DNA of 64,000 nt from the NCBI GenBank assembly GCA_028714635.1, contig JAQTLZ010000002.1:121841-185840 (forward strand), read 5' to 3'. Source of the stretch: Minisyncoccota bacterium. Its GTDB lineage: Bacteria > Patescibacteriota > Minisyncoccia > Phycocordibacterales > JAQTLZ01. Positions 10,527 through 63,711 of this stretch are shown piece after piece. Each line of letters begins with the position of its first letter. The first letter of the stretch is position 1. The translations under genes and the position numbers were made by a program. A model generated the notes under the pieces. That model had not been told where the DNA came from. It worked only from the letters and a program-made list of their open reading frames with translations, and searched no databases.

Positions 10527-10539
10527 CAACCCGGCTCAC

Positions 10540-12434: not shown

Positions 12435-12437
12435 AAA

Positions 12438-12482
12438 TAAAGCGCGCATAAACATCTGGGAACGTAAGGTGCGCGCTTTTTC
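12438..12482. terminator. bidirectional terminator hairpin
   Basis: AAAGCGCGCA(12438-12447)/TGCGCGCTTT(12470-12479) with A-run and T-run flanks, between convergent genes. Confidence 0.55.
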
Positions 12483-12613
12483 GGAGTTGTGGCCGCGGGG
12501 GCCTCTCGTCCGGTCATAATACGACTGCAAGCTGATCGAGTGGGACTCGATGGGTCTTGCATTTCTATAAAGTACGAAGTCGCGGCGCTCGTAGCTGGGC
12601 TGCTGTGGGTCAT

Positions 12614-13201: not shown

Positions 13202-13301
13202 GCATGAGGTACTGTAATCTCCCCGTATCGACGGGGCAAACTTCTCTCATAATTCTATCTTTTTATCTCGCCTCACGCTATAGTAGGGGAAATAAATTTT
13301 T

Positions 13302-13889
13302 ATGCACACGCTTCTTGTTTTTGTTCTCCAGTGGAGTTACCTCGGTATTTTTGTCGTTGTCTTTGCCGAATCAGGATTTCTTCTGGGATTTTTTCTTCCT
13401 GGTGACTCACTTCTTTTTACCGCAGGACTTCTCGCTTCGCAGGGAATTTTTAATATTTGGATTCTCGTTCCTCTGATTGTCATCGGCGCAATTCTCGGAG
13501 ACAGTTTCGGTTATTACATGGGCAACAAATTAGGCCCGAAAATTTTCGTGCGGAAAGATTCATTTTTTTTCAAACAAGAGAATGTTGAAAAGACAAATCA
13601 TTTTTATGAAAAATATGGAGTGAAGACGATCATTCTCGCGCGATTCGTGCCGATTGTTCGCACTTTCGCTCCCATCTTTGCTGGTGTGGGTGGAATGAAA
13701 TACGCGACATTTCTTTCTTATAACGTGATTGGAGGATTTCTTTGGGGTGCTGGAGTGACTCTTGCCGGCTTTTTTCTCGGGCGAGCCTTCCCAGGAATTG
13801 AGCACTATCTCACTTATATTATTATCGCGATTATCCTCCTCTCTTTTGTTCCAATTCTCTTAGAGTATTTCAAGAAGCGAACAGCTTGA
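13302..13889 (+). CDS. DedA/SNARE-associated family membrane protein
   Basis: 195 aa. VFAESGFLLGFFLPGDSLLFTAG signature and multiple TM helices. Confidence 0.85.
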   Translation: MHTLLVFVLQWSYLGIFVVVFAESGFLLGFFLPGDSLLFTAGLLASQGIFNIWILVPLIVIGAILGDSFGYYMGNKLGPKIFVRKDSFFFKQENVEKTNHFYEKYGVKTIILARFVPIVRTFAPIFAGVGGMKYATFLSYNVIGGFLWGAGVTLAGFFLGRAFPGIEHYLTYIIIAIILLSFVPILLEYFKKRTA

Positions 13890-13950
13890 AAAGTTTTATA
13901 AAAGTTGTATAATAATCTCTTCAAAGAGTCCTTTCAGGAGGGTTGAAGAC

Positions 13951-14166
13951 ATGCCAGTAGACAAAGCGAAGTTGGAAAGAGAGATTCTCGCGGCTCTCCT
14001 CTTCAATCGTTGCATGATGACTGAGGGAGCGCTTCGCCAGAAACTTGGCACCTCTATTCCGTTGCCCGACCTTCTTGAGGTCAAACAAGACCTCATCGAG
14101 CGCGGTCTCATTGAAGAAGATCTGGGTGGGAGAAGTCCTACACTCATCCTTCTCGATGGGAAATAG
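13951..14166 (+). CDS. small winged-helix-like hypothetical protein
   Basis: 71 aa. AGGAGGG (13936-13942) lies 8 nt before the ATG. GC is elevated relative to neighbours. Confidence 0.5.
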   Translation: MPVDKAKLEREILAALLFNRCMMTEGALRQKLGTSIPLPDLLEVKQDLIERGLIEEDLGGRSPTLILLDGK

Positions 14167-14235
14167 TTTCCTCGCCATTCCAGGAGCCTCACCGCTTCTG
14201 GATTTTTGTTTTTAGCGTTATACTGGTATAAATTT

Positions 14236-14937
14236 ATGACCACTTTCGGCCTCATCCTTCTTTGTTTTTTTCTTTTTGTCGGCTACATTTCTATTTATCG
14301 AAGAAAAGATCTGTTTACTCCTACGCAGGATCGTATATTTTTCACGCATCTCGTTATCATCGTCTTATTTATTGCAGTGAGTATTGTGAATGCCTTTCAT
14401 CTCGTCGATTCGGTGAATGTGGGAGTCCACGATTTTCTGCAAACGTTTTGGAATTCGAGCTTTGATACGCCGATGATAATGGCTAGTTTCCTCGCCAGTC
14501 CTGAAACGCTTGCGATCCTTTCCTGCCTTCTCCTTATCGTCCTTCACTTTAGGCACGAGCGTACACTTTTCTTTTTCACTTTCATTTCGCTAGTAGGTGC
14601 CTTGGTTTCTAATCTCATTTTGAAAGATCTTTTCAAATTGGTTCGCCCTGCAGTTTCTCTCATTCCTGAAACTTTTTGGAGTTTTCCAAGCGGACATTCG
14701 ACGATGATCGTCGTGTTTCTTTCTTGTTTGTATTACTGCTGGACTCGGATGTATCCGAATGTGGGGAAATGGAAAAAGCAGGCCGCGCTCTTTGCCGTTT
14801 TTCTCCTTTCTCTCCTCGTTGGCTTCAGCAGGCTTTATCTCGGTGTTCATTGGCTCTCTGACGTCGTCGCCGGCTTTCTTCTCGGGCTTTTCTGGGTGAC
14901 TTTTGCATATTTGAGTCCTAGGCCAAAGTCTGTATAA
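14236..14937 (+). CDS. PAP2-family lipid phosphatase (undecaprenyl-diphosphatase/PA phosphatase-like)
   Basis: KLVRP, SFPSGHS and SRLYLGVHWLSDV motifs. ATG at 14236 is in frame with the track ORF starting at 14206. Confidence 0.8.
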   Translation: MTTFGLILLCFFLFVGYISIYRRKDLFTPTQDRIFFTHLVIIVLFIAVSIVNAFHLVDSVNVGVHDFLQTFWNSSFDTPMIMASFLASPETLAILSCLLLIVLHFRHERTLFFFTFISLVGALVSNLILKDLFKLVRPAVSLIPETFWSFPSGHSTMIVVFLSCLYYCWTRMYPNVGKWKKQAALFAVFLLSLLVGFSRLYLGVHWLSDVVAGFLLGLFWVTFAYLSPRPKSV

Positions 14938-14946
14938 TCTGGCTCA

Positions 14947-15813
14947 ATGATCCTTCTCGACGGAAAAAAAGTAAGTAAAGACAGGGCTCTTGAGCTGAAA
15001 GCGCAAGTTTCGGCTTTTAGAGTTGCTCCAACACTTGCCATTCTTCAAGTGGGGGATGATGAACGTTCGAGCGCCTATATCCGCCAGAAGAAACTTTTTG
15101 GAGAGAAAATTGGGTGCAAAGTGTTGCATGTTACATTTGAAAGCACTGTCTCGCATTCTGACATTATTGAAAAGGTAAGGGAATTGAATGCTGATATATC
15201 TGTCCATGGAATTATTTTGCAGTTGCCAATTCCTACTAATCTCGATTCGCGCTCTATTATTGAGGCGATTGATCCGAAGAAAGATGTAGACGGACTCCAC
15301 TCTGAAAACGCGAAAAAACTTACGGATGGAGATGTAAGCGGATTTATTCCTGCAACAGCCAAAGGGGTGATATCACTTCTTGATGCGTATAAAATTCCAA
15401 TTGCGGGAAAGAAGGCAACGGTAGTGGGACGCTCGGCTCTCGTGGGTACTCCGACAGCACTTTGTCTTACAAATCGCGGCGCGAATGTGACAGTGGTACA
15501 TCGCGCAACTGTGAATATTCCCGCAAAAACAAAACAAGCTGACATCCTTGTGGTTGCGGCAGGACATGCAAAGCTTATCGACGCTCGTCACGTTTCGGCA
15601 GGTCAGAGCGTTATTGATGTAGGAATCAATTTGGTGACGGGAGAAAAACTTGAGGATGAAATTCCCAAGAAAAAGTTGGTGGGTGATGTGGATTTTGATG
15701 AGGTGAAAGATATCGTTGGGGCTATTTCTCCGGTACCGGGAGGAGTGGGGCCGATGACTGTTCTTTCTTTGTTTGAAAATCTTATCCTCGCCTACGAAAG
15801 GGCTATTAATTAG
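14947..15813 (+). CDS. folD: bifunctional methylenetetrahydrofolate dehydrogenase/cyclohydrolase
   Basis: 288 aa with full-length FolD-like sequence (YIRQKKK-type N-terminus, GIILQLPIP, PVPGGVGPMT). TATAAT at 14933-14938 lies 8 nt before the ATG. Confidence 0.9.
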   Translation: MILLDGKKVSKDRALELKAQVSAFRVAPTLAILQVGDDERSSAYIRQKKLFGEKIGCKVLHVTFESTVSHSDIIEKVRELNADISVHGIILQLPIPTNLDSRSIIEAIDPKKDVDGLHSENAKKLTDGDVSGFIPATAKGVISLLDAYKIPIAGKKATVVGRSALVGTPTALCLTNRGANVTVVHRATVNIPAKTKQADILVVAAGHAKLIDARHVSAGQSVIDVGINLVTGEKLEDEIPKKKLVGDVDFDEVKDIVGAISPVPGGVGPMTVLSLFENLILAYERAIN

Positions 15814-34513: not shown

Positions 34514-37500
34514 ATGTCCGAGAAAGAAACAGACAAAAAAGTGAAAAGCCCTTTAGCTCTCCGTGAAGAGGAGATTCTTCGATTTTGGCAGGAAAAGAAA
34601 ATTTTTGAGAAGACAGAAGAGGCAGGCAGAGGGCAGAAGGAATTTGTTTTCTATGAGGGACCGCCGACCGCGAATGGTCGGCCGGGAATCCATCATCTCG
34701 AAGCTCGGGCATTTAAAGACATCATTCCTCGCTATAAAACGATGCGAGGATATCACGTGCGCAGAAAAGGCGGCTGGGATACGCATGGGCTTCCGGTTGA
34801 GCTTGAAGTTGAGAAAAAACTCGGTCTCAAATCAAAAAAAGAGATCGAACAGTACGGCATCGCTAGATTTAACGCGGAGTGCAAAGAAAGTGTTTGGAAA
34901 TACGTGGACGAATGGAAACAATTTACCGAGCGAATGGGGTATTGGATCGATCTGAAAAATCCCTACATCACTTACGAGCCTTCGTATATGGAATCGCTTT
35001 GGAATGTGATGAAGACGGTGGATGAGAAAAAACTTCTCTACAAAGATTATCGAATTGTACCGTGGTGTCCGCGTTGTGGAACTGCGCTGTCGAGTCATGA
35101 ACTTGCCCAAGGCTATGCAGAAGTAAAAGATATTTCGGTTTACGCGAAATTTGAGCTCGTCGATGAGCCGGGTACATTTGTGTTGGCGTGGACGACGACA
35201 CCTTGGACATTGCCGGGGAATGTTGCTCTCGCAGTTGGGCCGAAAATCAAATATGTGAAAGTAAAGATTGGGAATGAGTTCTTTATTTTGGCGAAAGAGA
35301 GGCTTTCAATTCTGAAAGACAAAGCGCACGAAATGGTGGAGGAGTTTGATGCCGGAAAGATTATCGGGAAATCCTACAAACCGCTTTTCAATGCTTTTTC
35401 TGACCCAAAAATCCTAAACAAAGAAAATGCGTGGAAAATTTATGGAGCGGATTTTGTCACAACAACTGACGGAACCGGAGTGGTGCATATCGCGCCCATG
35501 TATGGAGCAGACGATTTCGCACTTGCGACGAAAGTAAATTTGCCGAAATATCATACGGTTACTCCAGCAGGCGCTTTTAATGCAGATAAAAATCTTCCGG
35601 GAAACATTTCAGGCATTTCTATTTCTTCCGAAGAGGATCGTAAAAAAGGGAACATTGAGATCCTTAAATATCTTCAGGAAAAAAATCTCTATTTCGATAA
35701 AGAATCTCATGCGCATGAATATCCTTTTTGTTGGCGCTGTAAAACCCCGCTTATCTATTACGCCCGCGATTCCTGGTATATCAAAATGTCTTCTCTTCGC
35801 GACAAATTGGTAAAAGAAAATGAAAAGATAAATTGGGAGCCAGACTATATCAAAGAGGGACGTTTCGGAGAATGGCTTCGCGAAGTGAAAGATTGGGCGA
35901 TCTCCCGCGAGCGCTATTGGGGCACACCTTTGCCTGTGTGGGAGTGCCAAAAATGCAAAAAACGCGAAGTGATCGGCTCAATCGAGGCTCTCAAAGAAAA
36001 AACATCTCGAAAAAATAAATACTTTCTTGTCCGTCATGGGGAAGCGGAATCGAATTTGACTGGGAAGGTAAGCTGTCGGCCAGATGATCCTTACAAGCTT
36101 ACTGACAAGGGAAGGGAACAAGTCGAGACCACAGCTAAGGCCCTTAAAAAGAAAAAAATCGATGTCATTTTTGTTTCTGATTACATTCGGACAAAAGAGA
36201 CAGCAGAAATTATCCGAGAAGCTTTGAATATTTCTCCTGACAAAGTCATCATCGATGCCCGGCTTCGCGAAGATAATATCGGAGTGTACCAAGGCAAGAC
36301 CTGGAAAGAATATCAGGATGAATATCCGTATCTCGAGCGATTCGTAAAAACTCCAGAAGGCGGAGAGACGCTTGCGGAAGTAAGAAAAAGATCTGGAGAT
36401 TTTCTGTTTGATATTGATTCTCGCTTTGCCGGAAAAAATATTCTGATTGTAAGCCATGATACCCCGATGACTCTGATTCTGGCAGTGGCGCAAGGCTGGA
36501 CGAAGGAAAGAATTCTGCTCGGTCACGAGAGAAAAACTCCCGAACCTTTCTATTTTCTGCCAGCAGAGCTTCGAGAGATTTCTTTTTCTCCCTATCCTCA
36601 CAATGATGACTATGAACTCGATCTTCACCGCCCGTTTATCGATGAAATAAAATTTCCTTGCGACTGTGGCCTGCCCCCTGGCCGGGCAGGCGGCCAGGGC
36701 GGAGAGATGAAACGAGTGAATGAAGTAATGGATGTCTGGTTTGATTCAGGCGCAATGCCGTTCGCCGAGGACCACTATCCATTCGAGAATAAAAAGTGGG
36801 TGGAGAAAGAAGGATTTCCGGCAGACTATATTTCTGAAGCGATTGATCAGACTCGCGGATGGTTTTATACGCTTCATGCTGTGGGAGTGCTTATGGGTTT
36901 CGGCAAGGCGTATAAAAATGTTATTTGTCTCGGGCATATTTTGGATAAGGACGGACAAAAAATGTCCAAATCAAAAGGTAACACGGTAAATCCGTGGGAG
37001 ATGATGGACAAGTATGGCGCTGATCCCCTTCGCTTTTGGATGTATGGCGTCAATCAGCCGGGCGAATCAAAAAACTTCGACGAGAAAACAGTTGATGAGG
37101 GAGTGAAAAAAGTATTCAATTTGCTTTTGAACGTTCTTTCTTTTTACGAGATGAATTCTCCCCAAGAGTTCGAAGTAAGCAAGCCGGGCGCAAGCGAGAA
37201 TGTCTTGGATAGATGGATCGAAGCGAAATTTGCCGAGCTCCTCGCTACAGTAGAAACCGGACTCGATGCGTATCGAGTATTTGAGCCTGCCCGCGCAATT
37301 CGCGATTTTATGGCTGACCTTTCGCAGTGGTATTTGAGGCGTTCTCGTGATCGATTTAAAAGTGATGACGTCTTAGATAGGACGAATGCAGTCCAAACAA
37401 CGCGCACGGTCCTTCTTCAATTGGCGAAACTTATGGCTCCGTTCACTCCGTTTGTTGCGGAAGATGTCTATCGAAGACTCAGGGGCGAGAAGGAGAGTGT

Positions 37501-37984
37501 GCATATGGAAAGCTGGCCAAAGAGAGAAAAAATAGATTCCAAACTTCTGAAAGAAATGGAAGCGGTGAGAAATCTTGTGTCACTCGGGCTCGAAGCTCGC
37601 TCGAAAGCGCTTATCAAGGTCCGCCAGCCGCTCGCGAAGATAACAGTGAAGGCCGAGAAAATGTCTCCAGAACTCGTCGGACTTATGAAAGATGAATTGA
37701 ATGTGAAGGAAGTGATGTTTGATGCGAAACTTTCTTCGAATGTTCTTCTCGATATTGTCATAACTCCTGCGTTAAAAGAAGAAGGAGAATATCGAGAACT
37801 TCTGCGAGTTATCCAAGATTTTAGAAAAGAAAAGAAGCTTCAAGCGAGCGACAAAATTTCGCTTTTTCTGACTGCACCGAAAGAGATCCTGGCAATTGTA
37901 AAAAAATTTGAAACTGAAATAAAAAAGGTTTGCAATGTTACCGGCTTTGAAACGAGGGAAGGCGAGTTTGAGCTTAAGCTGTAA
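34514..37984 (+). CDS. ileS: isoleucine--tRNA ligase with an inserted histidine-phosphatase (PGAM-type) domain
   Basis: 1156 aa. PPTANGRPGIHH (HIGH), KMSKSKGN, and WCPRCGT / CWRCKT zinc knuckles. Insert LVRHGEAESN...LIVSHDTPM at about 36017-36616. A 10-aa GC-rich insert lies at 36671-36700. Confidence 0.9.
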   Translation: MSEKETDKKVKSPLALREEEILRFWQEKKIFEKTEEAGRGQKEFVFYEGPPTANGRPGIHHLEARAFKDIIPRYKTMRGYHVRRKGGWDTHGLPVELEVEKKLGLKSKKEIEQYGIARFNAECKESVWKYVDEWKQFTERMGYWIDLKNPYITYEPSYMESLWNVMKTVDEKKLLYKDYRIVPWCPRCGTALSSHELAQGYAEVKDISVYAKFELVDEPGTFVLAWTTTPWTLPGNVALAVGPKIKYVKVKIGNEFFILAKERLSILKDKAHEMVEEFDAGKIIGKSYKPLFNAFSDPKILNKENAWKIYGADFVTTTDGTGVVHIAPMYGADDFALATKVNLPKYHTVTPAGAFNADKNLPGNISGISISSEEDRKKGNIEILKYLQEKNLYFDKESHAHEYPFCWRCKTPLIYYARDSWYIKMSSLRDKLVKENEKINWEPDYIKEGRFGEWLREVKDWAISRERYWGTPLPVWECQKCKKREVIGSIEALKEKTSRKNKYFLVRHGEAESNLTGKVSCRPDDPYKLTDKGREQVETTAKALKKKKIDVIFVSDYIRTKETAEIIREALNISPDKVIIDARLREDNIGVYQGKTWKEYQDEYPYLERFVKTPEGGETLAEVRKRSGDFLFDIDSRFAGKNILIVSHDTPMTLILAVAQGWTKERILLGHERKTPEPFYFLPAELREISFSPYPHNDDYELDLHRPFIDEIKFPCDCGLPPGRAGGQGGEMKRVNEVMDVWFDSGAMPFAEDHYPFENKKWVEKEGFPADYISEAIDQTRGWFYTLHAVGVLMGFGKAYKNVICLGHILDKDGQKMSKSKGNTVNPWEMMDKYGADPLRFWMYGVNQPGESKNFDEKTVDEGVKKVFNLLLNVLSFYEMNSPQEFEVSKPGASENVLDRWIEAKFAELLATVETGLDAYRVFEPARAIRDFMADLSQWYLRRSRDRFKSDDVLDRTNAVQTTRTVLLQLAKLMAPFTPFVAEDVYRRLRGEKESVHMESWPKREKIDSKLLKEMEAVRNLVSLGLEARSKALIKVRQPLAKITVKAEKMSPELVGLMKDELNVKEVMFDAKLSSNVLLDIVITPALKEEGEYRELLRVIQDFRKEKKLQASDKISLFLTAPKEILAIVKKFETEIKKVCNVTGFETREGEFELKL

Positions 37985-38624: not shown

Positions 38625-40565
38625 ATGAACCAAGAAAAAGAAGAGAAAAGCAAAATAGATCTGCTTGAGAAAAAGCTCTACAATCGCGATGCGAAACCAT
38701 GGGTTCCGCGCCGAAGAGTTTTACCGCACGAATCTTCAGAAACTCCGAAGGAATGGGATGATTCAAAAGACATAGAGCCGGAGCTCGATTCTCGTGAAGA
38801 TACGCCTGATATGACGCACCGAATTCCAATCTTCCAGAAGATATTCATCGCTTCCGTTCTTTTTTTTATTGTTGCCTCCGCTTTTGGATTTTATATGTAT
38901 TTTCTTGGAGGAAATACTGTTTCTGCGGATAATATTTCCATTTCGGTACTCGGCCCCGTATCAGTCGGAGGGGGAGAGCCGCTTCCGCTCGATGTTACAA
39001 TACAAAACAGGAATAAATCGCCCCTGGAAGCTACAAGTTTGGTCATCACCTATCCTGACGGAACAAAATATGCCAAAGATCTCAGCATCGATTTGCCTCG
39101 GGAGCGCGATGATATCGGTGACCTGGCATCGGGAGACATCTCACATTTTAGAATAAATCCGGTTCTTTTCGGCGAAGAGGGCTCAACGAAAGCGATAAAA
39201 TTCAGTCTCGAGTATCGCATCCGGGATTCGAACGGAATTTTCAACAAGGATTTTACGTATAATGTTGGAATCACTTCGACTCCGATCACCCTTACCATCG
39301 ATTCTTTGAAAGAAATAAATTCCGGCCAGAGCGTGGAAATTACCGCAACTTTGGTTTCAAACTCGCCAGGAGTCATTAATCATTTGCTTTTGAGCGCGAG
39401 CTACCCATTCGGTTTCAGTTTCCAAAGCGCAAATCCAAAGCCGGTGTATCAGAATGCTCTGTGGGATTTGGGTGATGTTGAAACTGGCGGGAAGAGAACA
39501 ATAAAGATACGAGGACAATTGGACGGCCAAGATGGCGAAGAAAGGATTTTTAAGTTCAGTGCCGGACTTCCAAGCGGAAAAAATAATAAATCGATTGGAG
39601 TCGCTTTTCTTTCGGCGTCCGATTCGATAACTATCCAGAAGCCGTTCATCGGTCTTAGCTTAGCTCTCGATGGAAACACATCCAAAGACGCGGTTGTGAA
39701 AAGCGGGCAAACAGTCCGGGCGAAAATAAGTTGGTCAAATAATCTCGCTTCTCAAGTGTTGAGCGGTGCGGTGATAGTGAAATTCAGCGGGAATCTTTTG
39801 AACAAGTCTTCCGTGATTCCGGAACAGGGTTTTTATCGCTCGAGCGATAATACGATTACTTGGGATAAAACAACGAACAACGAACTCCTTGCTCTGGATC
39901 CCGGCGCAGAAGGAAGTCTCGCCTTTCAATTTTCAACATTGCCCCTTGTGCAGGGCGGCGTCTCGATAAGAAACCCTGAGCTTCGCATTGAGGTGAGTGC
40001 GAAGGGGAGCCGCGTTTCCGACAGGGATGTTCCGGAAGAAGTTGATGCGCTCGTTACTCGCAATATAAAAATTTCTACTGATTTGAATCTTTCTTCCCGT
40101 CTCGTGTATTCAATCGGTCCGTTTGAAAATTCCGGACCTCTTCCTCCTCGGGCTGATCAGAAGACCACCTATACCGTGCTTTGGGGCGTGACCAATTCTT
40201 CCAACTCGGTATCTGGAGCGAAAGTTTCTGCTGTTCTGCCTTCGTATGTGGATTGGAAAAATTTGGTAAATCCTTCTTCTGAACAGGTCTCTTTCAATCC
40301 CGTGAGCCGTGAGGTAGTATGGAACCTCGGGAATGTGAAAGAAAATACCGGCGTAACCGCTTCGCCTCGTTCTGTCGCTTTCCAAGTTTTTTTCCTTCCA
40401 AGTGTGAGCCAGATCGGTGCAAGCCCCGTCATGATAGGGGACGCGACTCTTTCTGGAGTTGATGACTGGAATGGAGATGATGTTGGTTCAAGAAACAGAG
40501 CGTTGACCACCGAAATCGTAAGCGATCCAAATTATTCCGAGGGACAGCAGAAAGTGGAGCAATAA
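38625..40565 (+). CDS. large membrane-anchored extracellular protein, hypothetical (beta-rich)
   Basis: 646 aa. Charged N-terminus, one TM helix, then a long Ser/Thr/Val/Asn-rich region suggestive of tandem beta-sandwich domains. Confidence 0.65.
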   Translation: MNQEKEEKSKIDLLEKKLYNRDAKPWVPRRRVLPHESSETPKEWDDSKDIEPELDSREDTPDMTHRIPIFQKIFIASVLFFIVASAFGFYMYFLGGNTVSADNISISVLGPVSVGGGEPLPLDVTIQNRNKSPLEATSLVITYPDGTKYAKDLSIDLPRERDDIGDLASGDISHFRINPVLFGEEGSTKAIKFSLEYRIRDSNGIFNKDFTYNVGITSTPITLTIDSLKEINSGQSVEITATLVSNSPGVINHLLLSASYPFGFSFQSANPKPVYQNALWDLGDVETGGKRTIKIRGQLDGQDGEERIFKFSAGLPSGKNNKSIGVAFLSASDSITIQKPFIGLSLALDGNTSKDAVVKSGQTVRAKISWSNNLASQVLSGAVIVKFSGNLLNKSSVIPEQGFYRSSDNTITWDKTTNNELLALDPGAEGSLAFQFSTLPLVQGGVSIRNPELRIEVSAKGSRVSDRDVPEEVDALVTRNIKISTDLNLSSRLVYSIGPFENSGPLPPRADQKTTYTVLWGVTNSSNSVSGAKVSAVLPSYVDWKNLVNPSSEQVSFNPVSREVVWNLGNVKENTGVTASPRSVAFQVFFLPSVSQIGASPVMIGDATLSGVDDWNGDDVGSRNRALTTEIVSDPNYSEGQQKVEQ

Positions 40566-50050: not shown

Positions 50051-50080
50051 AAAACGGCACTCAGACGAGCTGCCGTTTTT
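50051..50080. terminator. bidirectional terminator hairpin
   Basis: AAAACGGCA..TGCCGTTTTT, between convergent rpsR and the CDP-alcohol transferase gene (overlaps the latter's 3' end). Confidence 0.65.
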
Positions 50081-50684
50081 CGATTTCTTCTGCCCATTTT
50101 TCGTAATGTGCTAGGAGAAGTCCGTCTGCCTTTTTATAGTACCAGAATTGACTGTAGAGAGTTAAAACTATTGCTATGACTCCTCCAATCACGCTGGTCC
50201 AGAATGCGGCAGTATGAATGTACTCTGGCGCGGTACTTCGTAGGACACCAACTGCTCCGATGAAAAGGTATTGAAATACTGCTTTCACTTTTCCCGGCAT
50301 GTCAGCATCGAAACTAATTCCGAGCTTCTCCATTCTCCACCTAAGTACCCCTATCTCTACTTCACGCTGCATTATGATTAGCGCAGTAGGTATTACCGGA
50401 AGGGGGTACTCCCAAGAGTAGTCATACAAGAGTTCAGCAGTGAAGATTTTATCCGAAATGGAATCAATCTGACCGCCAGACTTGCACTTTCCTCCCAGGC
50501 GCTTTGCGACTACGCCATCCAGTATGTCGCTCACCACAACTCCGAGCATTACCAGCAACACTTCCTTCCAACCTGCTTTGTGCAGGTTGAGGTAAATCAT
50601 GTAAGGCCCGAAGAAGACGGGCCGAGAGGCTGAGAGCACGAATGCGATCATTACAGCCACTATCCTGCCCGTCTTCCTTAGCAT
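50061..50684 (-). CDS. CDP-alcohol phosphatidyltransferase family protein
   Basis: 207 aa. DGVVAKR..G..IDSISD (DGxxAR..G...D...D), polytopic. GGAG lies 8 nt upstream of the ATG. Confidence 0.75.
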   Translation of the reverse strand: MLRKTGRIVAVMIAFVLSASRPVFFGPYMIYLNLHKAGWKEVLLVMLGVVVSDILDGVVAKRLGGKCKSGGQIDSISDKIFTAELLYDYSWEYPLPVIPTALIIMQREVEIGVLRWRMEKLGISFDADMPGKVKAVFQYLFIGAVGVLRSTAPEYIHTAAFWTSVIGGVIAIVLTLYSQFWYYKKADGLLLAHYEKWAEEIEKRQLV

Positions 50685-55759: not shown

Positions 55760-56617
55760 ATGGAAGAAAAAAACAATAGTAATTCAAATAACCGAAGTTA
55801 CGATTCTTCACCCAGGAATGAAGAAAATAAGGGATTTTCGGGTAATGAGATTAAAACGCAAGATGGGCACTTTGATTTCTTGTCTCAGAAGTCTCAAAGA
55901 CTTTCCACTGCCCTTTATATGCTCACTAACCTTTTTGAGCAAAACGACCCTCTTCGTTTCAAGCTCCGGGAGATGGCCGTAAAGCTCGTATCGGACACAA
56001 TGTGTCTCATACATTTATCAATAAAAGAAAGAGATCAGAAAATAAAAACAACATATTTTCTCGCGACAGAGATACTCTCTCTGTGCGAGATTGGTTATGC
56101 ATCCGGAATGATGTCGGAGATGAATCACCTCATCTTGAAGAAGGAATTTGGGCTTTTTACAGAGACTTTGCAGTCGAAAAGAGTTCGAAAAGATGAAGAA
56201 AATACTTTCACTATTCCAAGCAATTTTTTCAGCGTGAATGAAATATCGGACAATCATTCCGGGACGCTTCTGAAAGGAGGCAGTTTCGAAAAGGATATAA
56301 TCAAGAATCTTTCCACGGGAGACAAAAGACCCCTCTTGGGTTATAAAGGACATTATAAAAGACATATAGATGTAAAAGACAATAATGTCCTTTATAAAGA
56401 CATCCAAAGGACAGCGCCTGCTGTTGATAGAAGAGAAATGATATTAAAGGCTTTTAGAGATAGAAAAGAAGGCTCGTTGACCATAAAAGACATTGGGGAG
56501 GTTATAAAGGACTGCAGCGAAAAAACTATTCAGAGACAGCTCATTGATATGGTTAAGAATGGTGTCCTAGAGAAACATGGCGAAAGACGATGGAGTTCTT
56601 ATTCTATTAAGAAATAG
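55760..56617 (+). CDS. hypothetical DNA-binding protein (helical N-domain plus C-terminal winged HTH)
   Basis: 285 aa. C-terminal LTIKDIGEVIKDCSEKTIQRQLIDMVKNGVLEKHGERRWSSY resembles a wHTH. Confidence 0.5.
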   Translation: MEEKNNSNSNNRSYDSSPRNEENKGFSGNEIKTQDGHFDFLSQKSQRLSTALYMLTNLFEQNDPLRFKLREMAVKLVSDTMCLIHLSIKERDQKIKTTYFLATEILSLCEIGYASGMMSEMNHLILKKEFGLFTETLQSKRVRKDEENTFTIPSNFFSVNEISDNHSGTLLKGGSFEKDIIKNLSTGDKRPLLGYKGHYKRHIDVKDNNVLYKDIQRTAPAVDRREMILKAFRDRKEGSLTIKDIGEVIKDCSEKTIQRQLIDMVKNGVLEKHGERRWSSYSIKK

Positions 56618-57399: not shown

Positions 57400-59343
57400 A
57401 TGAATTATAAAACAAAGAGAGTAGTTGCAGGAGTTCTCGGTTTGGCAATGGCAGTCTCAATGGTTGCTGCTGCTGGAGGAGCTCTTACAGCTTTGGCTTC
57501 GTTCGACGTAAACCTTACTGTCGGCTCAACAGGAGCAGATGTAACGGCACTTCAAAACTGGCTTATTGAGAACGGATTTCTCAGTATCCCAGCTGCGACT
57601 GGCTACTTCGGTCCTTTGACCCAATCAGCAGTTGCTGCTTATCAGACAAGTGTTGGTATTACACCAGCAGCTGGTTATGTAGGTCCAATCACTCGAGCTA
57701 AGCTCAACGCGGGCGGTTCAGTTTCTGGAAACTTCCCAGCAGGTTGTACAAGCGCTTCAGGTTACAGCAGTGTAACAGGATTGCCTTGCGCACCGATTGG
57801 TTTCCCAGCAGGATGTACTTCAGCTTCAGGATTTAGTTCAACAACTGGACAGCCATGTTCGGGTGGTGGATCTTTCCCAGCAGGATGTACTTCAGCTTCA
57901 GGATTTAGCACAACAACCGGAATGTCATGTTCTGGCGGTTCATCAGGAGGTGGTTCACTTTCTGGTGGCGCAGGTGAAATAACAGTAACTGCTAAGACAG
58001 CTGGTACAGAAACCACTGTTGGCGAAGGAAAAGAGGAAAAGGTCCTCGGTATGGAGATAGAGGCTGATGATAACTCTGATGCTGAAATCACTTCTATGCG
58101 ACTTATCGCTACTGTTGACACCGATGGAGCAACAAGATTCAACCGATATGTTGACGAAGTAAAGGTATATATGGGAAGCAAAGAGGTAGGTTCATTGGAT
58201 TCATCTGATTTCTCACGAGATGCAGCTGAATTCACTGGAACCATTTCTCTCCATGGTGCCGTCGTACAGAAAGGCGAGAAAGTTCGATTCTATGTCGCTT
58301 TTGTCGCTAACAACATTATTGATTCTGATGATCTAGACAATACGATCAATCTCGTCGTAAGTCGAATCCGATTTACTGACGCTACAGGAGCAATCCTCAC
58401 AAATGAGGACATTGATACTGATGATGTGACCGTATCTTTCGAAGACGCAACAGAAAGTGATGGAGCAAAGGTGCAATCAGACTCTTCTACACCTGATGCA
58501 CAGATTTTGAAAGTTGAAGATAATAGTAGTTCAGAAGAATACCATATCTTCTCATTCAAGATTAAGTCAGACTCAGGCGCATCTGATATGGAGGTCACAT
58601 CGCTTCCTATCAACCTCTCAATCTACAACGCATCTACTACAGCTATCAACACGGAAGACTTGATTGATGATATGTATGTGATGATTGGTGGAAAGAAGTA
58701 TGATGATTACACATTCGACAACACAAGTATTGCTACAGCTAGTACAGAGACCGCTATAGCTACCTTCACCATAGACGAAGGAGATCTAACAGTTGACGGT
58801 GGTACTACTGAGCAAGCTAAGGTGTACGTCAAATTCGGTAGACAAGAAGACAAATACGCTGCTGCTGATACAACAGTTACAGCTTCTGTCGTCGGTTCTA
58901 CTATTGACGCAGAAAACTCTAACGGTGATACCATTGACTTGACTGGTACTGTCACTGGAAAGACAATGACAGCTGCTATTTCTGCTGCTGAAGTCACAGA
59001 CTTCACTTGGGCAGTAGGAACTGGCGGAACATACATAGACTTCTTCTTCACAGTAACAGCTGGCGATGAAGACTTCGATGTTCTTACAGCAAGCATTGCT
59101 TCTTCTACATCTGGTAATGCAACAACATCTTCTGGAACTCTCACAAAGAGCTCTGGCGATGATGTAACTAGCATTTCAGGAGGATTCACTGTCGCTTCTG
59201 GAGATACAACAACGTTCAAAGTTAGATACTTGGTAACAGGTTCTAACGGAACAATCTCAACAGTAACGATTACTTCTGTGGCTGGACAAGAGGTACCTGA
59301 CAACAAACAGGAATCTCCTACAGCAACAAGAAACGTTTACTAA
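57400..59343 (+). CDS. secreted peptidoglycan-binding-domain protein with Cys-repeat and Thr/Ser/Asp-rich beta region
   Basis: 647 aa. Signal/TM, PG_binding_1-like segment (GADVTALQNWL..GYFGPLTQSAVAAYQ), and three FPAGCTSASG(F/Y)S..TG..C repeats. Confidence 0.75.
   Translation: MNYKTKRVVAGVLGLAMAVSMVAAAGGALTALASFDVNLTVGSTGADVTALQNWLIENGFLSIPAATGYFGPLTQSAVAAYQTSVGITPAAGYVGPITRAKLNAGGSVSGNFPAGCTSASGYSSVTGLPCAPIGFPAGCTSASGFSSTTGQPCSGGGSFPAGCTSASGFSTTTGMSCSGGSSGGGSLSGGAGEITVTAKTAGTETTVGEGKEEKVLGMEIEADDNSDAEITSMRLIATVDTDGATRFNRYVDEVKVYMGSKEVGSLDSSDFSRDAAEFTGTISLHGAVVQKGEKVRFYVAFVANNIIDSDDLDNTINLVVSRIRFTDATGAILTNEDIDTDDVTVSFEDATESDGAKVQSDSSTPDAQILKVEDNSSSEEYHIFSFKIKSDSGASDMEVTSLPINLSIYNASTTAINTEDLIDDMYVMIGGKKYDDYTFDNTSIATASTETAIATFTIDEGDLTVDGGTTEQAKVYVKFGRQEDKYAAADTTVTASVVGSTIDAENSNGDTIDLTGTVTGKTMTAAISAAEVTDFTWAVGTGGTYIDFFFTVTAGDEDFDVLTASIASSTSGNATTSSGTLTKSSGDDVTSISGGFTVASGDTTTFKVRYLVTGSNGTISTVTITSVAGQEVPDNKQESPTATRNVY
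57733..57945 (+). repeat. three tandem 69-72-nt coding repeats
   Basis: Units start at 57733, 57802 and 57874. Units 2 and 3 share an identical 35-nt stretch, TTCCCAGCAGGATGTACTTCAGCTTCAGGATTTAG. Confidence 0.85.
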
Positions 59344-59385
59344 TCTCTTGTGACTTATTGGGCCCAAAAGCCTAATGAGATGATT

Positions 59386-59417
59386 ACAAAACCGCCCTTC
59401 GGGGCGGTTTTGTTTTG
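59386..59417 (+). terminator. rho-independent terminator (first of a tandem pair)
   Basis: AAAACCGCCC-TTCG-GGGCGGTTTT, then GTTTTG. Confidence 0.8.
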
Positions 59418-59450
59418 TCTGGTTTCTCATATAAAGTTGGAAAGGCCTTA

Positions 59451-59487
59451 AAAGCCCCGCCGAGCTTGCTCTCGGCGGGGCTTTTTT
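59451..59487 (+). terminator. rho-independent terminator (second of a tandem pair)
   Basis: GCCCCGCCGAG/CTCGGCGGGGC 11-bp stem, then TTTTTT. Confidence 0.8.
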
Positions 59488-59526
59488 GTGGATGTTTTCT
59501 TCCGAGATGGATGGTACACTATTCGT

Positions 59527-59685
59527 ATGTGGAAATACTTCGATAAGACCTTTTTTAAGTTTCTGATAGGTTTTTTGGTCATTCTGACCGCCAGTTTTCT
59601 CCTCCTCATTTTCACCAACGCCTATAAGATAAAAATCGAAGCGCAATCCCAATTCGCCAATCCTCCTTTAGTGCAAGATCAATGA
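59527..59685 (+). CDS. small membrane protein (52 aa), hypothetical
   Basis: The ATG at 59527 lies 6 nt after TGGTACACT (59512-59520). One TM helix. ATGA overlap with the next gene. Confidence 0.5.
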   Translation: MWKYFDKTFFKFLIGFLVILTASFLLLIFTNAYKIKIEAQSQFANPPLVQDQ

Positions 59686-62600
59686 GACGGCGAGGGTTAC
59701 AAATTTTTCTCCTCATTTTTTCTTCTCTCTGCATTTTCAATATAAACTCTGTAAAAGCGGAGACCGTCATCACCGATTCAGAAATTTCTGTCGATACCAC
59801 ATGGACAAAAGTAAATAGCCCCTATATTATTTCAGGCGATTTGATTATCGATTCAGGCGTGACTCTCACAATTGAACCAGGAGTTATTGTGAAAATGGAA
59901 AACAGCGCTTTGTATGTAGATGGGAAAATCGTCGCGGAAGGCACTGAAAACGAGAAGATATACTTCACCTCGTTTGCAGACGATTCTCTCGGAGGAGACA
60001 CGAATGGCGACGGTGCTCTCACGACACCATCGGAATTCGATTACGACGGCATCAGGTTGTGGGGAAGCGACCCTGGATCACATTTCTCTCATGCAGTTTT
60101 CCAGTATGCTTCAATAGCTCTCGATTTCGATACCACTACTGCCACACTGGATGCTGTCTCCATCGAGCATGGCAATGGAGGAATCTCTGCCTTTAATGCA
60201 GATATTTCTCTTAAAAATTCTCATCTTTTCGATCTTTCATTTGATGCAGTTGATGGATATGGCGCGAGTAAGATACTCGTTGCTTCAAGCATTATCGAAG
60301 ATCTTCAGGGCTCTGCTTTTGGCATGTATAACGACTCGATGCTCATACTCAAAGACTCGACGATAAAAAATCTTCAAGATGGAACTGGTGTGATCTTATT
60401 CGATTCTTTTGCGGATATTCAAGATTCGACTTTTGAAAATATTACTCGGGATGCGGTGGGTGTCTACAATTCGAAGCTTACTTTCAAGGATTCTTCAGCC
60501 AAAGATAATGATTGGGGTTCTGCAATTTATGCGCAAGGCACAAGCGATGTCACCATTTCAGGAAGTTCATTCGACGGCGGTTTCAATTCGGGCGTTGAAT
60601 TTTATGGAAACAGCTGGAGCGGACAACATTCTTCTTTTTCTGTATCAAACTCGACTTTTCAAAATTATCTTTATGCCGGAATAAGTGCGGGGGATATTGT
60701 TTCCGGGAGTATCGCTTCAAGCACAATTCAGAAAAATTTTATCGGTCTTGATGTGTGGAATATCCCGTTGCTCATAAGCGGAAGTGCAATAAAAGAGAAT
60801 GATCTTCTGGGACTTTGGAATGAATCGGATGAAAAAGTAGTTGATGCAAAAAATAACTGGTGGGGAGATGTAGGAGGCCCGTACGAAGAAGTTGGGAATC
60901 CGCTTGGATTTGGAAATGAGGTAATGGGAGCTGTTAATTACACGCCATGGCTTAGCGAAGATCCATTTTTAGTAATAGAGCCGGAGTGCTGTTCAAGCGT
61001 TGCATTTTTGCCGGGAATCGAGGGAAGTAGGTTGTATAAGCAGGGCCTGATTTTTGAAGACCAGCTTTGGGAGCCGAATTACTATAGCGATGTAGAGGCT
61101 CTTCATTTAGATGCAAATGGAAAAAGCAAAGACCCTTCGGTTTACACAAAGGACGTTATTGATAGTGTAAATATTGCGGGTACAAAAATTTACCGAAGTT
61201 TCATGGATGAGATGGATGGTTTGAAAACCGCAGGCACAATATCAGATTGGGAACCGCTTCCGTATGATTGGCGGCTTTCCGCGGATGATACGGTGGCGAA
61301 TCCTGTGAAGCTCGCAGGCGGGGGTACATATTCGATGGTTGCCCAAATTGAAAATCTGGCGGCAAATTCGAAAACGGGGAAAGTCACGCTCATCGCGCAC
61401 AGTATGGGAGGAATTGTAAGCAAAGCGCTTATCAAAGCACTTGAGGCAAAAGGGGAGGCGGGACTTATCGATAAGTTAATTCTGGTCGCCTCTCCGCAGA
61501 TCGGTACGCCACAGACAATTGGTTCGCTTCTGCACGGATACGGAGAAGAACTTTTCCACGGACTTCTGGCGGGCGCAGCCACAATGCGAACATTTGGCGA
61601 GAATCTTTCCGGAGCGTATCAGCTTTTGCCTTCTGCAGAATATTTTACAAAAGTGTCGGATCCGGTTGTTACATTTGATCCATCAATCGATACCGTTTCA
61701 GATTTCAGACAAAAATATGGAGAAAGTATTTCCACCAAAGCAGGACTTCAGAATTTTCTTCTTGGAGCAGATGGCAGAGCAAAACCATCGGCAGAAGATA
61801 TTACCTTGCCGAATATTTTGAATTCTACAATTCTCACAAATGTAAATACACTTCATGACAATATCGATTCATACCAAATTCCGTCGGACATTGCAGTAAC
61901 GCAAATTGCCGGTTGGGGATTGGATACGATAAAAGGAATTAAATATCAGACGAAAGATGTAACAGTCTGCGCCGATAAAGGAGCCTGTCAGACGAATAAA
62001 GAATTGGACATGCGACCAATCTTTACGGAAGATGGAGATGGGACGGTGGTGGTGCCAAGTGCGGCGAAGTTGAATACGAGTAAATATTTTTTTGATTTTC
62101 CCCTCTATAACTCGCAATTTAATATATCTCTTGAACATAAGAACATTCTCGAGTCTTCTGTAATTCTCGATTTTCTAAAAAACAAAATTATCGAAGCGAC
62201 AAGTTCTGCTGATTTCATTACTTCCACAGAACCAGATCCAGTTGATCTTGGCAAACAGATTCGTCTTTCTGGTCACTCGCCGATTTCACTAGATCTCTAT
62301 GATAGCGACGGTCATCACACGGGCCTTATCTCTATTCCTAATTCAGATTTTAATTACGCAGAAGAACAAATTCCGAATAGTTATTATTTTGAACTTGGCG
62401 ATGGGAAGTATGTAGGATTCCCAGATGATAATTCCACAAATGTAAAAATATCTGGCACTGGTATTGGAACTTTTACCCTCGATATTGAACGAGTGGTAGG
62501 AGGCCAGACAACCACAACTTCTTCATACGCGGATATTCCCGTTTTCCCAACAACGCAAGCCTCTCTTCTCGTATCTGCGACTTCCACCACGCTTTCACTA

Positions 62601-62924
62601 GATCTCGATGGGAATGGTGCAGTGGATTTCAATCTAGCTCCGACGCAAGAGCTTGATTCAATCGCGTATTTCAAAGTAATGAAGAATATCATTGCTTCTC
62701 TCAACTTATCTCCTGGCGTTACCAAGCCTCTTCTTGCTAAAATTGATAATGCGATAAAGATGCTTCAGAAAAGCAAGGTGTCAAATGTCCAGAAAAGAAT
62801 TTCTAGTATGTTGCATCAGATAGAAATAAAAAATAAAAAGAAAGTGAATAAAAAAATTGATTCTATCGACGCACAATTCTTGGTTACTATGCTTACTAAT
62901 TTATTAGATAATCTCCCAAAATAA
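59682..62924 (+). CDS. secreted beta-helix (PbH1-repeat) protein fused to an LCAT-like alpha/beta-hydrolase (phospholipase/acyltransferase) domain
   Basis: 1080 aa. Signal peptide. Repetitive Ser/Asp/Gly-rich beta-helix-type turns at residues about 30-400. PYDWR and IAHSMGG (GxSxG) motifs typical of the LCAT/PDAT lipase family. Confidence 0.7.
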   Translation: MRRRGLQIFLLIFSSLCIFNINSVKAETVITDSEISVDTTWTKVNSPYIISGDLIIDSGVTLTIEPGVIVKMENSALYVDGKIVAEGTENEKIYFTSFADDSLGGDTNGDGALTTPSEFDYDGIRLWGSDPGSHFSHAVFQYASIALDFDTTTATLDAVSIEHGNGGISAFNADISLKNSHLFDLSFDAVDGYGASKILVASSIIEDLQGSAFGMYNDSMLILKDSTIKNLQDGTGVILFDSFADIQDSTFENITRDAVGVYNSKLTFKDSSAKDNDWGSAIYAQGTSDVTISGSSFDGGFNSGVEFYGNSWSGQHSSFSVSNSTFQNYLYAGISAGDIVSGSIASSTIQKNFIGLDVWNIPLLISGSAIKENDLLGLWNESDEKVVDAKNNWWGDVGGPYEEVGNPLGFGNEVMGAVNYTPWLSEDPFLVIEPECCSSVAFLPGIEGSRLYKQGLIFEDQLWEPNYYSDVEALHLDANGKSKDPSVYTKDVIDSVNIAGTKIYRSFMDEMDGLKTAGTISDWEPLPYDWRLSADDTVANPVKLAGGGTYSMVAQIENLAANSKTGKVTLIAHSMGGIVSKALIKALEAKGEAGLIDKLILVASPQIGTPQTIGSLLHGYGEELFHGLLAGAATMRTFGENLSGAYQLLPSAEYFTKVSDPVVTFDPSIDTVSDFRQKYGESISTKAGLQNFLLGADGRAKPSAEDITLPNILNSTILTNVNTLHDNIDSYQIPSDIAVTQIAGWGLDTIKGIKYQTKDVTVCADKGACQTNKELDMRPIFTEDGDGTVVVPSAAKLNTSKYFFDFPLYNSQFNISLEHKNILESSVILDFLKNKIIEATSSADFITSTEPDPVDLGKQIRLSGHSPISLDLYDSDGHHTGLISIPNSDFNYAEEQIPNSYYFELGDGKYVGFPDDNSTNVKISGTGIGTFTLDIERVVGGQTTTTSSYADIPVFPTTQASLLVSATSTTLSLDLDGNGAVDFNLAPTQELDSIAYFKVMKNIIASLNLSPGVTKPLLAKIDNAIKMLQKSKVSNVQKRISSMLHQIEIKNKKKVNKKIDSIDAQFLVTMLTNLLDNLPK

Positions 62925-63337
62925 TGAGTCATCGAAAAATTCTAGGGACACTGGTAGTCATAATAACTTTATTGTTTGGCATCGGTTTGTCATTGATGTA
63001 TCCGAATAATATTGGATTGTGTTCTATTGGAGAAAGGTGTGTTTACGATTCAGTATTTTATCTCTGGAAACCTCTACTCTTCAGTCTAATACCTGTTCTT
63101 TTAGTATTGATCTTATTCCTATTTCTTTCAGATAAATTTTTCAATATTTGGTGGAAATTTGCCCTTGTTTATTTTATTCTCGCTTTTTTGTGGATTTCGA
63201 CAACACCCATAATGTGCCGCAGTCTTATCTGTTTTGACCGTGAATATGTGGCGATAGTTTCTGGAGTCGGATTTCTTATCGTTAGTTTCATTATAATCAT
63301 TACAAAAACTGTTCTTCTTCGCAGGAAAAAGATTTAA
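62924..63337 (+). CDS. polytopic small membrane protein, hypothetical
   Basis: 137 aa with four TM helices. TAATG overlap with the upstream gene. Confidence 0.6.
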   Translation: MSHRKILGTLVVIITLLFGIGLSLMYPNNIGLCSIGERCVYDSVFYLWKPLLFSLIPVLLVLILFLFLSDKFFNIWWKFALVYFILAFLWISTTPIMCRSLICFDREYVAIVSGVGFLIVSFIIIITKTVLLRRKKI

Positions 63338-63390: not shown

Positions 63391-63438
63391 AGTTAACATA
63401 TGTTAACTATTGCAATCTTAGTTAACATAGCATATAAT
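63391..63438 (+). promoter_or_regulatory. operator palindromes plus -10 box of the HTH-Doc operon
   Basis: 18-bp perfect palindrome AGTTAACATATGTTAACT (63391-63408). Half-site repeat AGTTAACATA (63420-63429). TATAAT (63433-63438) lies 6 nt before the ATG. Confidence 0.6.
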
Positions 63439-63444
63439 CGACCC

Positions 63445-63711
63445 ATGGAAAATAAAGGAACCAAGAAACTCTTATCGACCGCTGAAGTGGCTAAAATCCT
63501 TGGAATTAGTCGTGTTGCTGTATTTAAGAAGATTCAAAGTGGTGAAATAAAAGCCCAAAAAATCGGCCGAAATTATGTTATCGAAAGCACTGATTTGAGT
63601 GCAGCTCTCGGTGTTATTTTATCTCCTGAAAGGAAAAAAGAGATTGAGAAATCAGTTGACAAAACAGTGAAAGAATACGGTGAAGCTCTCAAGATGCTGG
63701 GTAAAGAATAA
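63445..63711 (+). CDS. excisionase-type HTH DNA-binding protein (putative antitoxin)
   Basis: LLSTAEVAKILGISRVAVFKKIQSGEIKAQKIGRNYVI is an HTH_17/MerR-like motif. Start taken at the ATG at 63445. Confidence 0.7.
   Translation: MENKGTKKLLSTAEVAKILGISRVAVFKKIQSGEIKAQKIGRNYVIESTDLSAALGVILSPERKKEIEKSVDKTVKEYGEALKMLGKE

Follow-up and report, generated by a model that had tools for sequence, protein, structure and literature searches.

The locus described here bears on the question of how Candidate Phyla Radiation (CPR) bacteria come by the lipids of their membranes. Published work describes these bacteria as lacking complete lipid synthesis and reportedly making no fatty acids, yet they contain acyl lipids and are enriched in lysolipids (PMC7242380). 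The same work suggested that a phospholipase A acting on the lipids of other cells could be the source of the lysolipids, without naming an enzyme, and a 2024 review still listed the mechanisms of lipid uptake and breakdown as unidentified (PMC11665869). We analysed a stretch of 64,000 nucleotides (nt; hereafter the window) from the Minisyncoccota assembly GCA_028714635.1 (contig JAQTLZ010000002.1, positions 121,841 to 185,840), whose source organism, a member of the Paceibacteria, is tiny and probably host-dependent. Close to the end of the window lies a gene for a protein of 1080 amino acids (aa), overlapped on either side by a gene for a small membrane protein. A preliminary description, made from the letters alone, had taken the large protein for a secreted lipase of the lecithin:cholesterol acyltransferase (LCAT) type, fused to an adhesin-like beta-helix, that would harvest lipids from host membranes. 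Is this protein a candidate for such an enzyme, and what are its two neighbours?

A secreted enzyme between two small membrane proteins

The list of open reading frames (ORFs) contained all four ORFs that the preliminary description had placed here, at the same coordinates and all on the plus strand: a putative 647-aa wall-binding surface protein (57400-59343), a 52-aa peptide with a single transmembrane (TM) segment (59527-59685), the 1080-aa secreted enzyme with its five modules (59682-62924) and a 137-aa membrane protein with four TM segments (62924-63337). The last three had been described as an overlap-coupled trio, and both overlaps could be read in the sequence. The stop codon (TGA) of the 52-aa ORF overlaps the ATG of the enzyme gene within ATGA at 59682-59685, and the TAA of the enzyme gene shares a single base with the ATG that starts the 137-aa ORF, within TAATG at 62922-62926. 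This layout is classic for translational coupling, and from its sequence the stretch 59527-63337 appears to be one translationally coupled unit, coding for an enzyme exported by the Sec route together with a pair of very small membrane proteins. The two terminators noted earlier behind the surface-protein gene were also located, as GC-rich, intrinsic-terminator-like hairpins on the plus strand (59386-59488), each followed by a T run. The one at 59386-59413, found by a scan, has a 12-bp stem with 7 GC pairs, and the one at 59451-59488 was read directly as AAAAGCCCCGCCGAG-CTTG-CTCGGCGGGGCTTTTTT. As the hairpins stand between the 647-aa gene and the trio, the region would comprise two transcription units, the first consisting of the surface-protein gene on its own. 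The stretch from the second hairpin to the 52-aa ORF was searched for a sigma-70-like promoter, and none was found.

The public record has the enzyme in an identical copy, entered as 'right-handed parallel beta-helix repeat-containing protein [Candidatus Pacebacteria bacterium]'. The copy comes from assembly GCA_028711105.1, contig JAQTSW010000031.1 (our locus L086, in which positions 1-3920 correspond to this region). In this record, the only public one of the locus that we examined, the genes for the 52-aa and the 137-aa proteins are both uncalled.

The enzyme begins with a Sec-type signal peptide (aa 1-26; 59682-59759), read from the sequence, which consists of an MRRRG n-region, a 14-aa hydrophobic h-region and a predicted AxA cleavage site between VKA and E. 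The same layout was kept in 110 of 120 homologues, the others resembling shortened gene calls; the calls were made by a simple heuristic of our own, not by SignalP, and on that basis they bear out the export proposed for the protein. Its N-terminal 400 aa or so had been read as a right-handed beta-helix, and aa 27-430 (59760-60971) do form such a module, of the NosD/CASH-like, carbohydrate-binding type. Pfam Beta_helix (PF13229) matched aa 213-359 with 46.9-51.7 bits against a gathering cut-off of 25.9. The module is capped at its N-terminus by the invariant residues W41, P47 and Y48, contains a GGDTNGDG loop and closes with the motif NNWWGD. When run against the PDB, the family profile matched a phage tail-fibre receptor-binding protein (8egr, 4e-10), NosD and an alginate epimerase.

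The beta-helix is followed by an alpha/beta-hydrolase of the LCAT/lysosomal phospholipase A2 (LPLA2) type (aa 431-845; 60972-62216). The LCAT family PF02450 matched aa 491-792 over profile positions 54-354 of 392, with 55.2 bits, or 58.4 when only the domain was submitted, where the cut-off is 21. Matches to PGAP1, DUF7379, DUF900 and palmitoyl-thioesterase families spanned only ~60 residues around the nucleophile, and membership of these families was rejected as motif-level similarity. The two motifs singled out earlier as LCAT-family signatures, PYDWR and IAHSMGG, are present, the first at aa 527-531 and the AHSMGG of the second at aa 572-577. The latter holds the predicted nucleophile S574 (61401-61403); the predicted acid D786 (62037-62039) lies in GDGTV, and the histidine is H819 (62136-62138). 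All three residues were invariant in a first alignment of 21 full-length homologues (34-66% identity), as were Y528-R531 of PYDWR, H573, G576, G577, G785 and V789. In a second alignment, of 92 sequences, the S574 motif was again invariant and D786 and H819 were conserved in at least 90%. The lipase reading turned on a complete catalytic triad, and S574-D786-H819 is one, conserved across homologues. Aspartate and histidine are 33 residues apart, the spacing in LCAT and LPLA2 being 32.

C-terminal to the hydrolase are a beta-sandwich domain (aa 858-985; 62253-62636), seen as strands in a structural model and as invariant alignment columns, and a helical module (aa 993-1077; 62658-62912). The sandwich has the invariant residues H865, S866, P867, D874, G877, T880 and G881 (HSP-x6-D-x2-G-x2-TG) and a DLDGNG loop, and matched no Pfam or NCBIfam family. 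The helical module is FIMAH-like, in that FIMAH (PF22888) matched the aligned C-terminus of the homologue P0006 with 30.5 bits against 24.8, the window protein itself falling below threshold.

A search of the PDB with the whole protein sequence found nothing, and structure prediction was needed to place the fold. An AlphaFold model of aa 425-1080, run with the 92 sequences, reached a mean predicted local distance difference test score (pLDDT) of 93.1 and a predicted template modelling score (pTM) of 0.90. It consists of the alpha/beta-hydrolase, the beta-sandwich and four C-terminal helices, and a pTM of this height means that these parts are predicted to pack as one rigid body. The best Foldseek match in the PDB was LPLA2 (4x97, E 3.6e-14, TM-score 0.66 normalised to the target), with seven LCAT entries at about 1e-10, the type VI lipase effector Tle4 at 8.6e-9 and the pro-lipase BlEst2 at 7e-7; the remaining strong matches were all lipases or thioesterases, and weaker ones included polyhydroxybutyrate (PHB) depolymerase, feruloyl esterases and the LipA:LipB complex (E 1.9e-3). 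The lipase proposal would have been weakened had the fold mapped to a non-lipase alpha/beta-hydrolase family; it maps to LCAT/LPLA2. As modelled, the enzyme core has the fold of LCAT and of human lysosomal phospholipase A2, and in sequence its Ser574-Asp786-His819 triad is intact. Members of this family are built from a hydrolase core, a membrane-binding domain and a cap domain with a lid (PMC6277198), and ~100 extra aligned residues in the model indicate that the membrane-binding and cap parts of this plan are present.

The enzyme family and its partner genes

Homologues of the enzyme number in the thousands, and its features lie far beyond chance. A phmmer search with aa 425-1080 against 1.84 billion cluster representatives returned 1,646 proteins at E <= 1e-30; the family comprises at least 1,646 clusters at 50% identity. 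Most of the top 150 representatives, which are 620-1456 aa long, span the hydrolase, sandwich and helical unit almost fully; thus these three C-terminal domains appear to be the conserved core of the family and the N-terminal module its variable part. At least 561 proteins were obtained by a word-indexed homologue search, and the named relatives belong to Paceibacterota, Parcubacteria, Taylor-, Giovannoni-, Lloyd- and other Parcubacteria-type lineages. A scan with one genome per species gave at least 80 loci, almost all of them labelled Patescibacteria; some metagenome-assembled genomes (MAGs) bear the unverified labels 'Saccharibacteria', 'Bdellovibrionales' or 'Thermosynechococcus'. Some genomes hold the enzyme gene in two copies (L053/L070 and L068/L073, each pair from one MAG).

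The small neighbours were followed with hidden Markov models (HMMs) made from the 137-aa and 52-aa proteins of the window and their counterparts, which were run on every ORF of 30 aa or more in the loci retrieved. It was by these HMMs that the four-TM family was recovered, a word-indexed homologue search with the window protein having given three proteins. A four-TM gene stands directly downstream of the enzyme gene in 57 of the 79 loci with enough downstream sequence, the gap being mostly -4 to +38 nt from the stop codon. Three loci (L036, L044 and L067) have two copies of the four-TM gene downstream of the enzyme gene. Of the 64 loci with complete flanks, 22 have a gene of the single-TM peptide family next to that of the enzyme, usually 30-200 nt upstream of it and sometimes after the four-TM gene. 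All but one of these 64 loci have one or both partner genes next to the enzyme gene, with tight or overlapping spacing: 41 have the four-TM gene only, 14 the peptide gene only and 8, the window among them, both, and in 1 locus neither was found. Co-occurrence of the overlapping genes in related genomes had been put forward as a check on the trio, and for the small membrane genes the answer was strongly positive (63/64 loci). When the enzymes were arranged in a neighbour-joining tree, a single clade took in 13 of the 14 loci that have the peptide gene only; partner type thus follows the enzyme tree, which argues that the partners have been inherited along with the enzyme.

The near-universal adjacency of the enzyme gene to genes for small membrane proteins is a new observation. 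Our literature searches, with most subscription journals outside their coverage, found no paper on the enzyme family, and its four-module architecture, near-confinement to Patescibacteria and near-universal pairing with two unannotated membrane-protein families are together unlike anything that we found described.

Neither the 52-aa nor the 137-aa protein matched a family in Pfam or NCBIfam. The 52-aa ORF was listed from a GTG at 59488, but its relatives begin at the ATG at 59527 with M-x-KYFDK, and from that ATG the peptide starts MWKYFDKTFFKF, with the TM segment next. It is kept in L001 and L002, where 16-22 of the codon differences are synonymous and 13-18 are non-synonymous. The family consensus is M-x-NPFD[KR]xFF[KR]F..GF..IL..SF, so that the conserved part consists of an N-terminal juxtamembrane motif and the TM segment. 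The 137-aa protein had been described as having four TM segments and shows four hydropathy peaks, with a cysteine pair, C33 and C39, in the first outside loop. Across the four-TM family this pair is found in about 75% of members, and W76, in a predicted cytoplasmic loop if an N-in topology is assumed, is 88% conserved. The cysteine pairs in both outside loops of the window protein raised the idea of a DsbB/VKOR-like oxidoreductase, which was dropped because the second pair is confined to the subgroup of the window and seven of 64 members are free of cysteine. The D-K-x-F-F-like juxtamembrane motif common to both proteins raised the idea that the 52-aa peptide is a fragment or homologue of the four-TM protein; this too was rejected, on a profile-profile probability of 0.1% (E 0.42).

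Relation to known systems and possible roles

By every feature of sequence and model tested, the hydrolase domain belongs to the LCAT/LPLA2 (PLA2G15) family. It shares with these enzymes membership of PF02450, the Ser-Asp-His triad and the AHSMGG-type, PYDWR and GDGTV motifs; LPLA2 and LCAT are secreted or luminal and act on lipid acyl esters, and the same is predicted for the present enzyme. The differences are that it is bacterial, that its hydrolase sits within a 1080-aa protein, between a beta-helix and a beta-sandwich with helical tail, that it is encoded with small membrane-protein partners, and that its Ser-to-Asp spacing is 212, about 50 residues longer than the spacing of about 162-164 in LCAT/LPLA2.

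Two bacterial systems in which a lipase is paired with a neighbouring protein offer comparisons of gene layout. Tle4 of Pseudomonas aeruginosa (PDB 4r1d, with Tli4) is exported by the type VI system and has no signal peptide, whereas the present enzyme has a Sec-type one, and no secretion-system genes were found in the flanks of six loci. Tli4 is a soluble periplasmic immunity protein, whereas the conserved small gene adjacent to the present enzyme codes for an integral membrane protein, with four TM segments or one, of very short outside loops and no recognised family. The Lif foldases of Pseudomonas/Burkholderia, of ~340 aa, have one N-terminal anchor and a large helical periplasmic domain; the partner here, whether the 137-aa protein with its four TM segments or the ~50-aa peptide, has no extracytoplasmic domain. 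Judged by its sequence, the unit has the defining features neither of type VI Tle4 effectors nor of lipase-foldase pairs. A secreted lipase followed by a packed beta-sandwich is also found in BlEst2 of Bacillus licheniformis (PDB 6wpx) and in EstA3 of Thermoanaerobacter. According to the title of the deposition, cited in PMC10816834, the C-terminal domains of BlEst2 inhibit the enzyme until they are removed, and the beta-sandwich of EstA3 is needed for long-chain substrates (PMC10816834). Their lipase domains are, however, small, of family I type and not LCAT-like, and the match was limited to the 242-residue lipase core.

As to its role, we give roughly even chances to the reading that the enzyme attacks extracellular glycerolipid esters and that the products feed the producer's own membrane. 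In its first step, which the modelled fold makes probable, the enzyme would hydrolyse or transfer glycerolipid acyl chains outside the cell, in the manner of a phospholipase A, of a lysophospholipase or of a transacylase. Its substrate lipids could come from a host cell or from dead biomass, and the fatty acids or lysolipids released would be taken into the bacterium's own membrane. The beta-helix may hold the enzyme on a glycan surface, either the bacterium's own wall or that of the host, and the small membrane proteins may act with it at the producer membrane, as its tether, as a restraint on it or as the receiver of its product. Lipases that scavenge lipids have been described or predicted in Borrelia (BB0562; PMC8409650), in Vibrio cholerae (VolA; PMC3656444) and in the CPR predator Vampirococcus, for which a secreted phospholipase was proposed to serve this purpose (PMC8080830). 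Their likeness to the present enzyme is functional only and lies in the proposed job, the freeing of fatty acids or lysolipids from exogenous lipids for the cell's own membrane; none of them is reported to have its domain architecture or partner genes. Lipid scavenging is the best-fitting reading given the lysolipid data from CPR bacteria, the missing uptake enzyme and the Vampirococcus precedent, and the desaturase, PAP2, DedA/VTT and CDP-alcohol transferase genes elsewhere in the window fit it as well. Harvesting from a host in particular, as first proposed, is plausible and agrees with the published lysolipid data, and the beta-helix may have the adhesin role suggested for it.

Several observations weigh against this reading. 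Against the PDB, the family profile matched LPLA2 around the nucleophile at no better than E 0.035, and structure-based identity to LPLA2/LCAT is low, at 13-18%. The segment aa 466-526, the positional counterpart of the membrane-binding domain, is polar, and no hydrophobic stretch stands out in the hydrolase, where the highest hydropathy over 15 residues (1.42) belongs to the buried nucleophile strand; an attack on membranes by the LCAT mechanism is thus no more than a possibility. A beta-helix fusion is more typical of carbohydrate-active enzymes. A membrane-attacking enzyme would threaten the producer's own membrane too, and no means of avoiding this is apparent. The role assigned to the partner proteins is a guess and the weakest part of every model, and their conserved residues are mostly in the membrane or on the cytoplasmic side, which argues against the partners binding the enzyme outside the cell. 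Finally, the organism's inability to make lipids would be taken over from published work on CPR bacteria, as it reaches beyond 64 kb (PMC7242380, PMC11665869).

Could the enzyme instead be a weapon? It might be a secreted phospholipase toxin, akin to type VI lipase effectors such as Tle4, that destroys membranes and so lyses or permeabilises the host cell, with the partner as the immunity protein that shields the producer's membrane and nutrient release, not lipid supply, as the goal. Toxin and immunity genes are classically laid out in this way, a small and fast-evolving gene standing invariably next to that of the toxin, and it has been proposed that phospholipases serve Patescibacteria to break through the envelope of the host (PMC11665869, PMC8080830). 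The use of a Sec signal peptide and the lack of secretion-system context speak against a toxin, as does the nature of the partners: the Tli immunity proteins known so far are soluble and bind in the periplasm, the present partners have just some 10-25 residues exposed outside the membrane, and one clade has the 50-aa peptide alone. We therefore consider a toxin unlikely, while noting that this idea overlaps with lipid harvesting and does not oppose it. Somewhat less likely again is that the enzyme remodels the producer's own envelope, acting on its outer membrane leaflet or on lipids linked to the wall, either by making lysolipids against the curvature stress of very small cells or by transferring acyl chains to an acceptor such as a lipoglycan or protein, with the small membrane proteins as membrane-embedded partners or substrates. 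Here it counts that LCAT is primarily a transacylase and that LPLA2 also transacylates, that the partners are integral membrane proteins of the producer and that other lipid-modifying genes lie within the window; relief of curvature has moreover been proposed for the lysolipids enriched in CPR cells (PMC7242380). The beta-helix of 400 aa, and a signal peptide that comes with no anchor, nevertheless point away from the producer's membrane, no acceptor-specific feature was identified in the enzyme, and an N-terminal module that varies in length (in proteins of 620-1456 aa) fits varied external targets better.

The polar segment and the beta-helix would be accounted for if the enzyme were an esterase of glycans or other polymers, removing acetyl or other ester groups from them or depolymerising a polyester, with the beta-helix bound to a polysaccharide such as a capsule, a wall or a plant or algal polymer. 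NosD/CASH beta-helices are typical of carbohydrate-active proteins, the family profile matched an alginate epimerase and a phage receptor-binding protein, and PHB depolymerase and feruloyl esterases were among the weaker structural matches. LPLA2 and LCAT were, however, the top structural matches by a wide margin, with true lipases next, and PF02450 was the sole Pfam hydrolase family matched over about 300 residues, so that this appears to us the most improbable of the alternatives.

To return to lipid scavenging, it can be taken one step further: the enzyme and its small partner or partners might be a dedicated, so-far-missing device by which Paceibacteria acquire lipids, in which an LPLA2-like enzyme on a glycan surface would take acyl chains or lysolipids from an adjoining cell, with the partners as its receiving or self-protecting half. 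This extension is possible but doubtful; if true, the device would explain how membranes are built without fatty-acid synthesis and why they are rich in lysolipids. The class of enzyme is a familiar one, and a lipase in a lipid-dependent bacterium is no surprise. Patescibacteria nevertheless make up a large share of bacterial diversity, how they acquire membrane lipids is an acknowledged open question, and the family described here is a concrete, widespread and clonable candidate for that task. With it the vague idea of 'some phospholipase' becomes a defined and testable enzyme with its partner set, and two small protein families that the one public annotation checked had missed are brought to notice. 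Were the enzyme a toxin or a glycan esterase instead, the conserved three-gene layout would still be new surface biology for Patescibacteria.

The surface-protein gene and the rest of the window

The 647-aa protein encoded upstream (57400-59343) had been counted with the trio as a single locus, and in this the preliminary description did not hold: two terminators intervene, and the genes are adjacent only in the window and its close relative L002, not in L001, L003 or L004. On the same grounds we rejected the idea that the PG_binding_1 gene is linked to the enzyme in function. All the features attributed to the protein itself were found, namely a PG_binding_1-type domain, three cysteine repeats and a Thr/Asp-rich beta region. 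A signal or TM segment (aa 1-33) is followed by PG_binding_1 (PF01471; aa 44-102, profile positions 1-57 of 57, 47.1 bits against 23, E 2.7e-12), by cysteine-pair repeats (aa 111-177) and by immunoglobulin (Ig)-like domains (aa 190-647). The repeats, located with a regular expression, are three 15-residue units of the form CTSASG[YF]S..TG..C at aa 116, 139 and 163, and the C-terminal 457 aa contain 14.9% Thr and 10.5% Asp. An AlphaFold model of the protein (pLDDT 88.6) has three helices at aa 46-105 and about four Ig-like beta-sandwiches, for which Foldseek matched the Ig-like stalk domains of the enterococcal adhesin PrgB (5e-13), the C-terminal domains of streptococcal antigen I/II and integrin legs. 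From its sequence, this appears to be a surface protein anchored in the wall, its gene syntenic with the trio but the protein unrelated to the enzyme unit.

Relatives of the 647-aa protein number more than 1,000 in Patescibacteria, the closest being 55% identical; among the 120 relatives listed, 41 have no cysteine repeat, 10 have one, 40 two, 28 three and 1 four. The exact sequence was absent from a collection of 5.8 billion proteins, whereas the adjacent enzyme had a 100% match there. The public contig JAQTSW010000031.1 begins merely 156 nt upstream of the enzyme gene, so that the assembly must have broken in or just after the surface-protein gene. The lack of an exact copy and the contig break together suggest either rapid divergence or assembly drop-out, as would fit a surface gene that evolves fast and assembles poorly. 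Between ftsK and this gene, at 55760-56617 on the plus strand, lies a gene for a 285-aa protein without a Pfam family, which is conserved in the same place and at the same length in L002 (1806-2663).

The window otherwise looks like a normal segment of a Patescibacteria chromosome, with genes for aminoacyl-tRNA synthetases, RecA, FtsK, thymidylate synthase and serine hydroxymethyltransferase. The desaturase, PAP2 and CDP-alcohol transferase genes that had been mentioned as possible partners in downstream lipid remodelling were all located by their Pfam matches: FA_desaturase at 7840-8958, a PAP2 protein at 14206-14937 and a CDP-alcohol phosphatidyltransferase (CDP-OH_P_transf) at 50061-50684 on the minus strand. 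Pfam also identified an alpha/beta-hydrolase of the Hydrolase_4/DUF1749 type at 11433-12434 and a DedA/VTT protein at 13302-13889, and with the desaturase and PAP2 genes these make up a loose cluster of lipid-related genes at 7840-15000. A MAG of the Paceibacteria is reported to contain a putative lysophospholipase (COG2267) gained by horizontal transfer (PMC12455944).

Directly after the trio, at 63400-63711 on the plus strand, is an HTH_17 (excisionase-like) gene, which in the public contig (L086 3920-4614) is followed by a Fic-domain gene that runs past the end of the window. The two may be a toxin-antitoxin pair or the remnant of a mobile element. An unusual architecture was noticed in the 1156-aa class I aminoacyl-tRNA synthetase (tRNA-synt_1 and Anticodon_1) encoded at 34514-37984 on the plus strand, which has a complete histidine-phosphatase domain (His_Phos_1, E 7.9e-37) inserted at aa 504-666, between the halves of its catalytic domain. 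A second large putative surface protein, of 646 aa and with a match to DUF11 repeats (E 1.2e-8), is encoded at 38625-40565 on the same strand.

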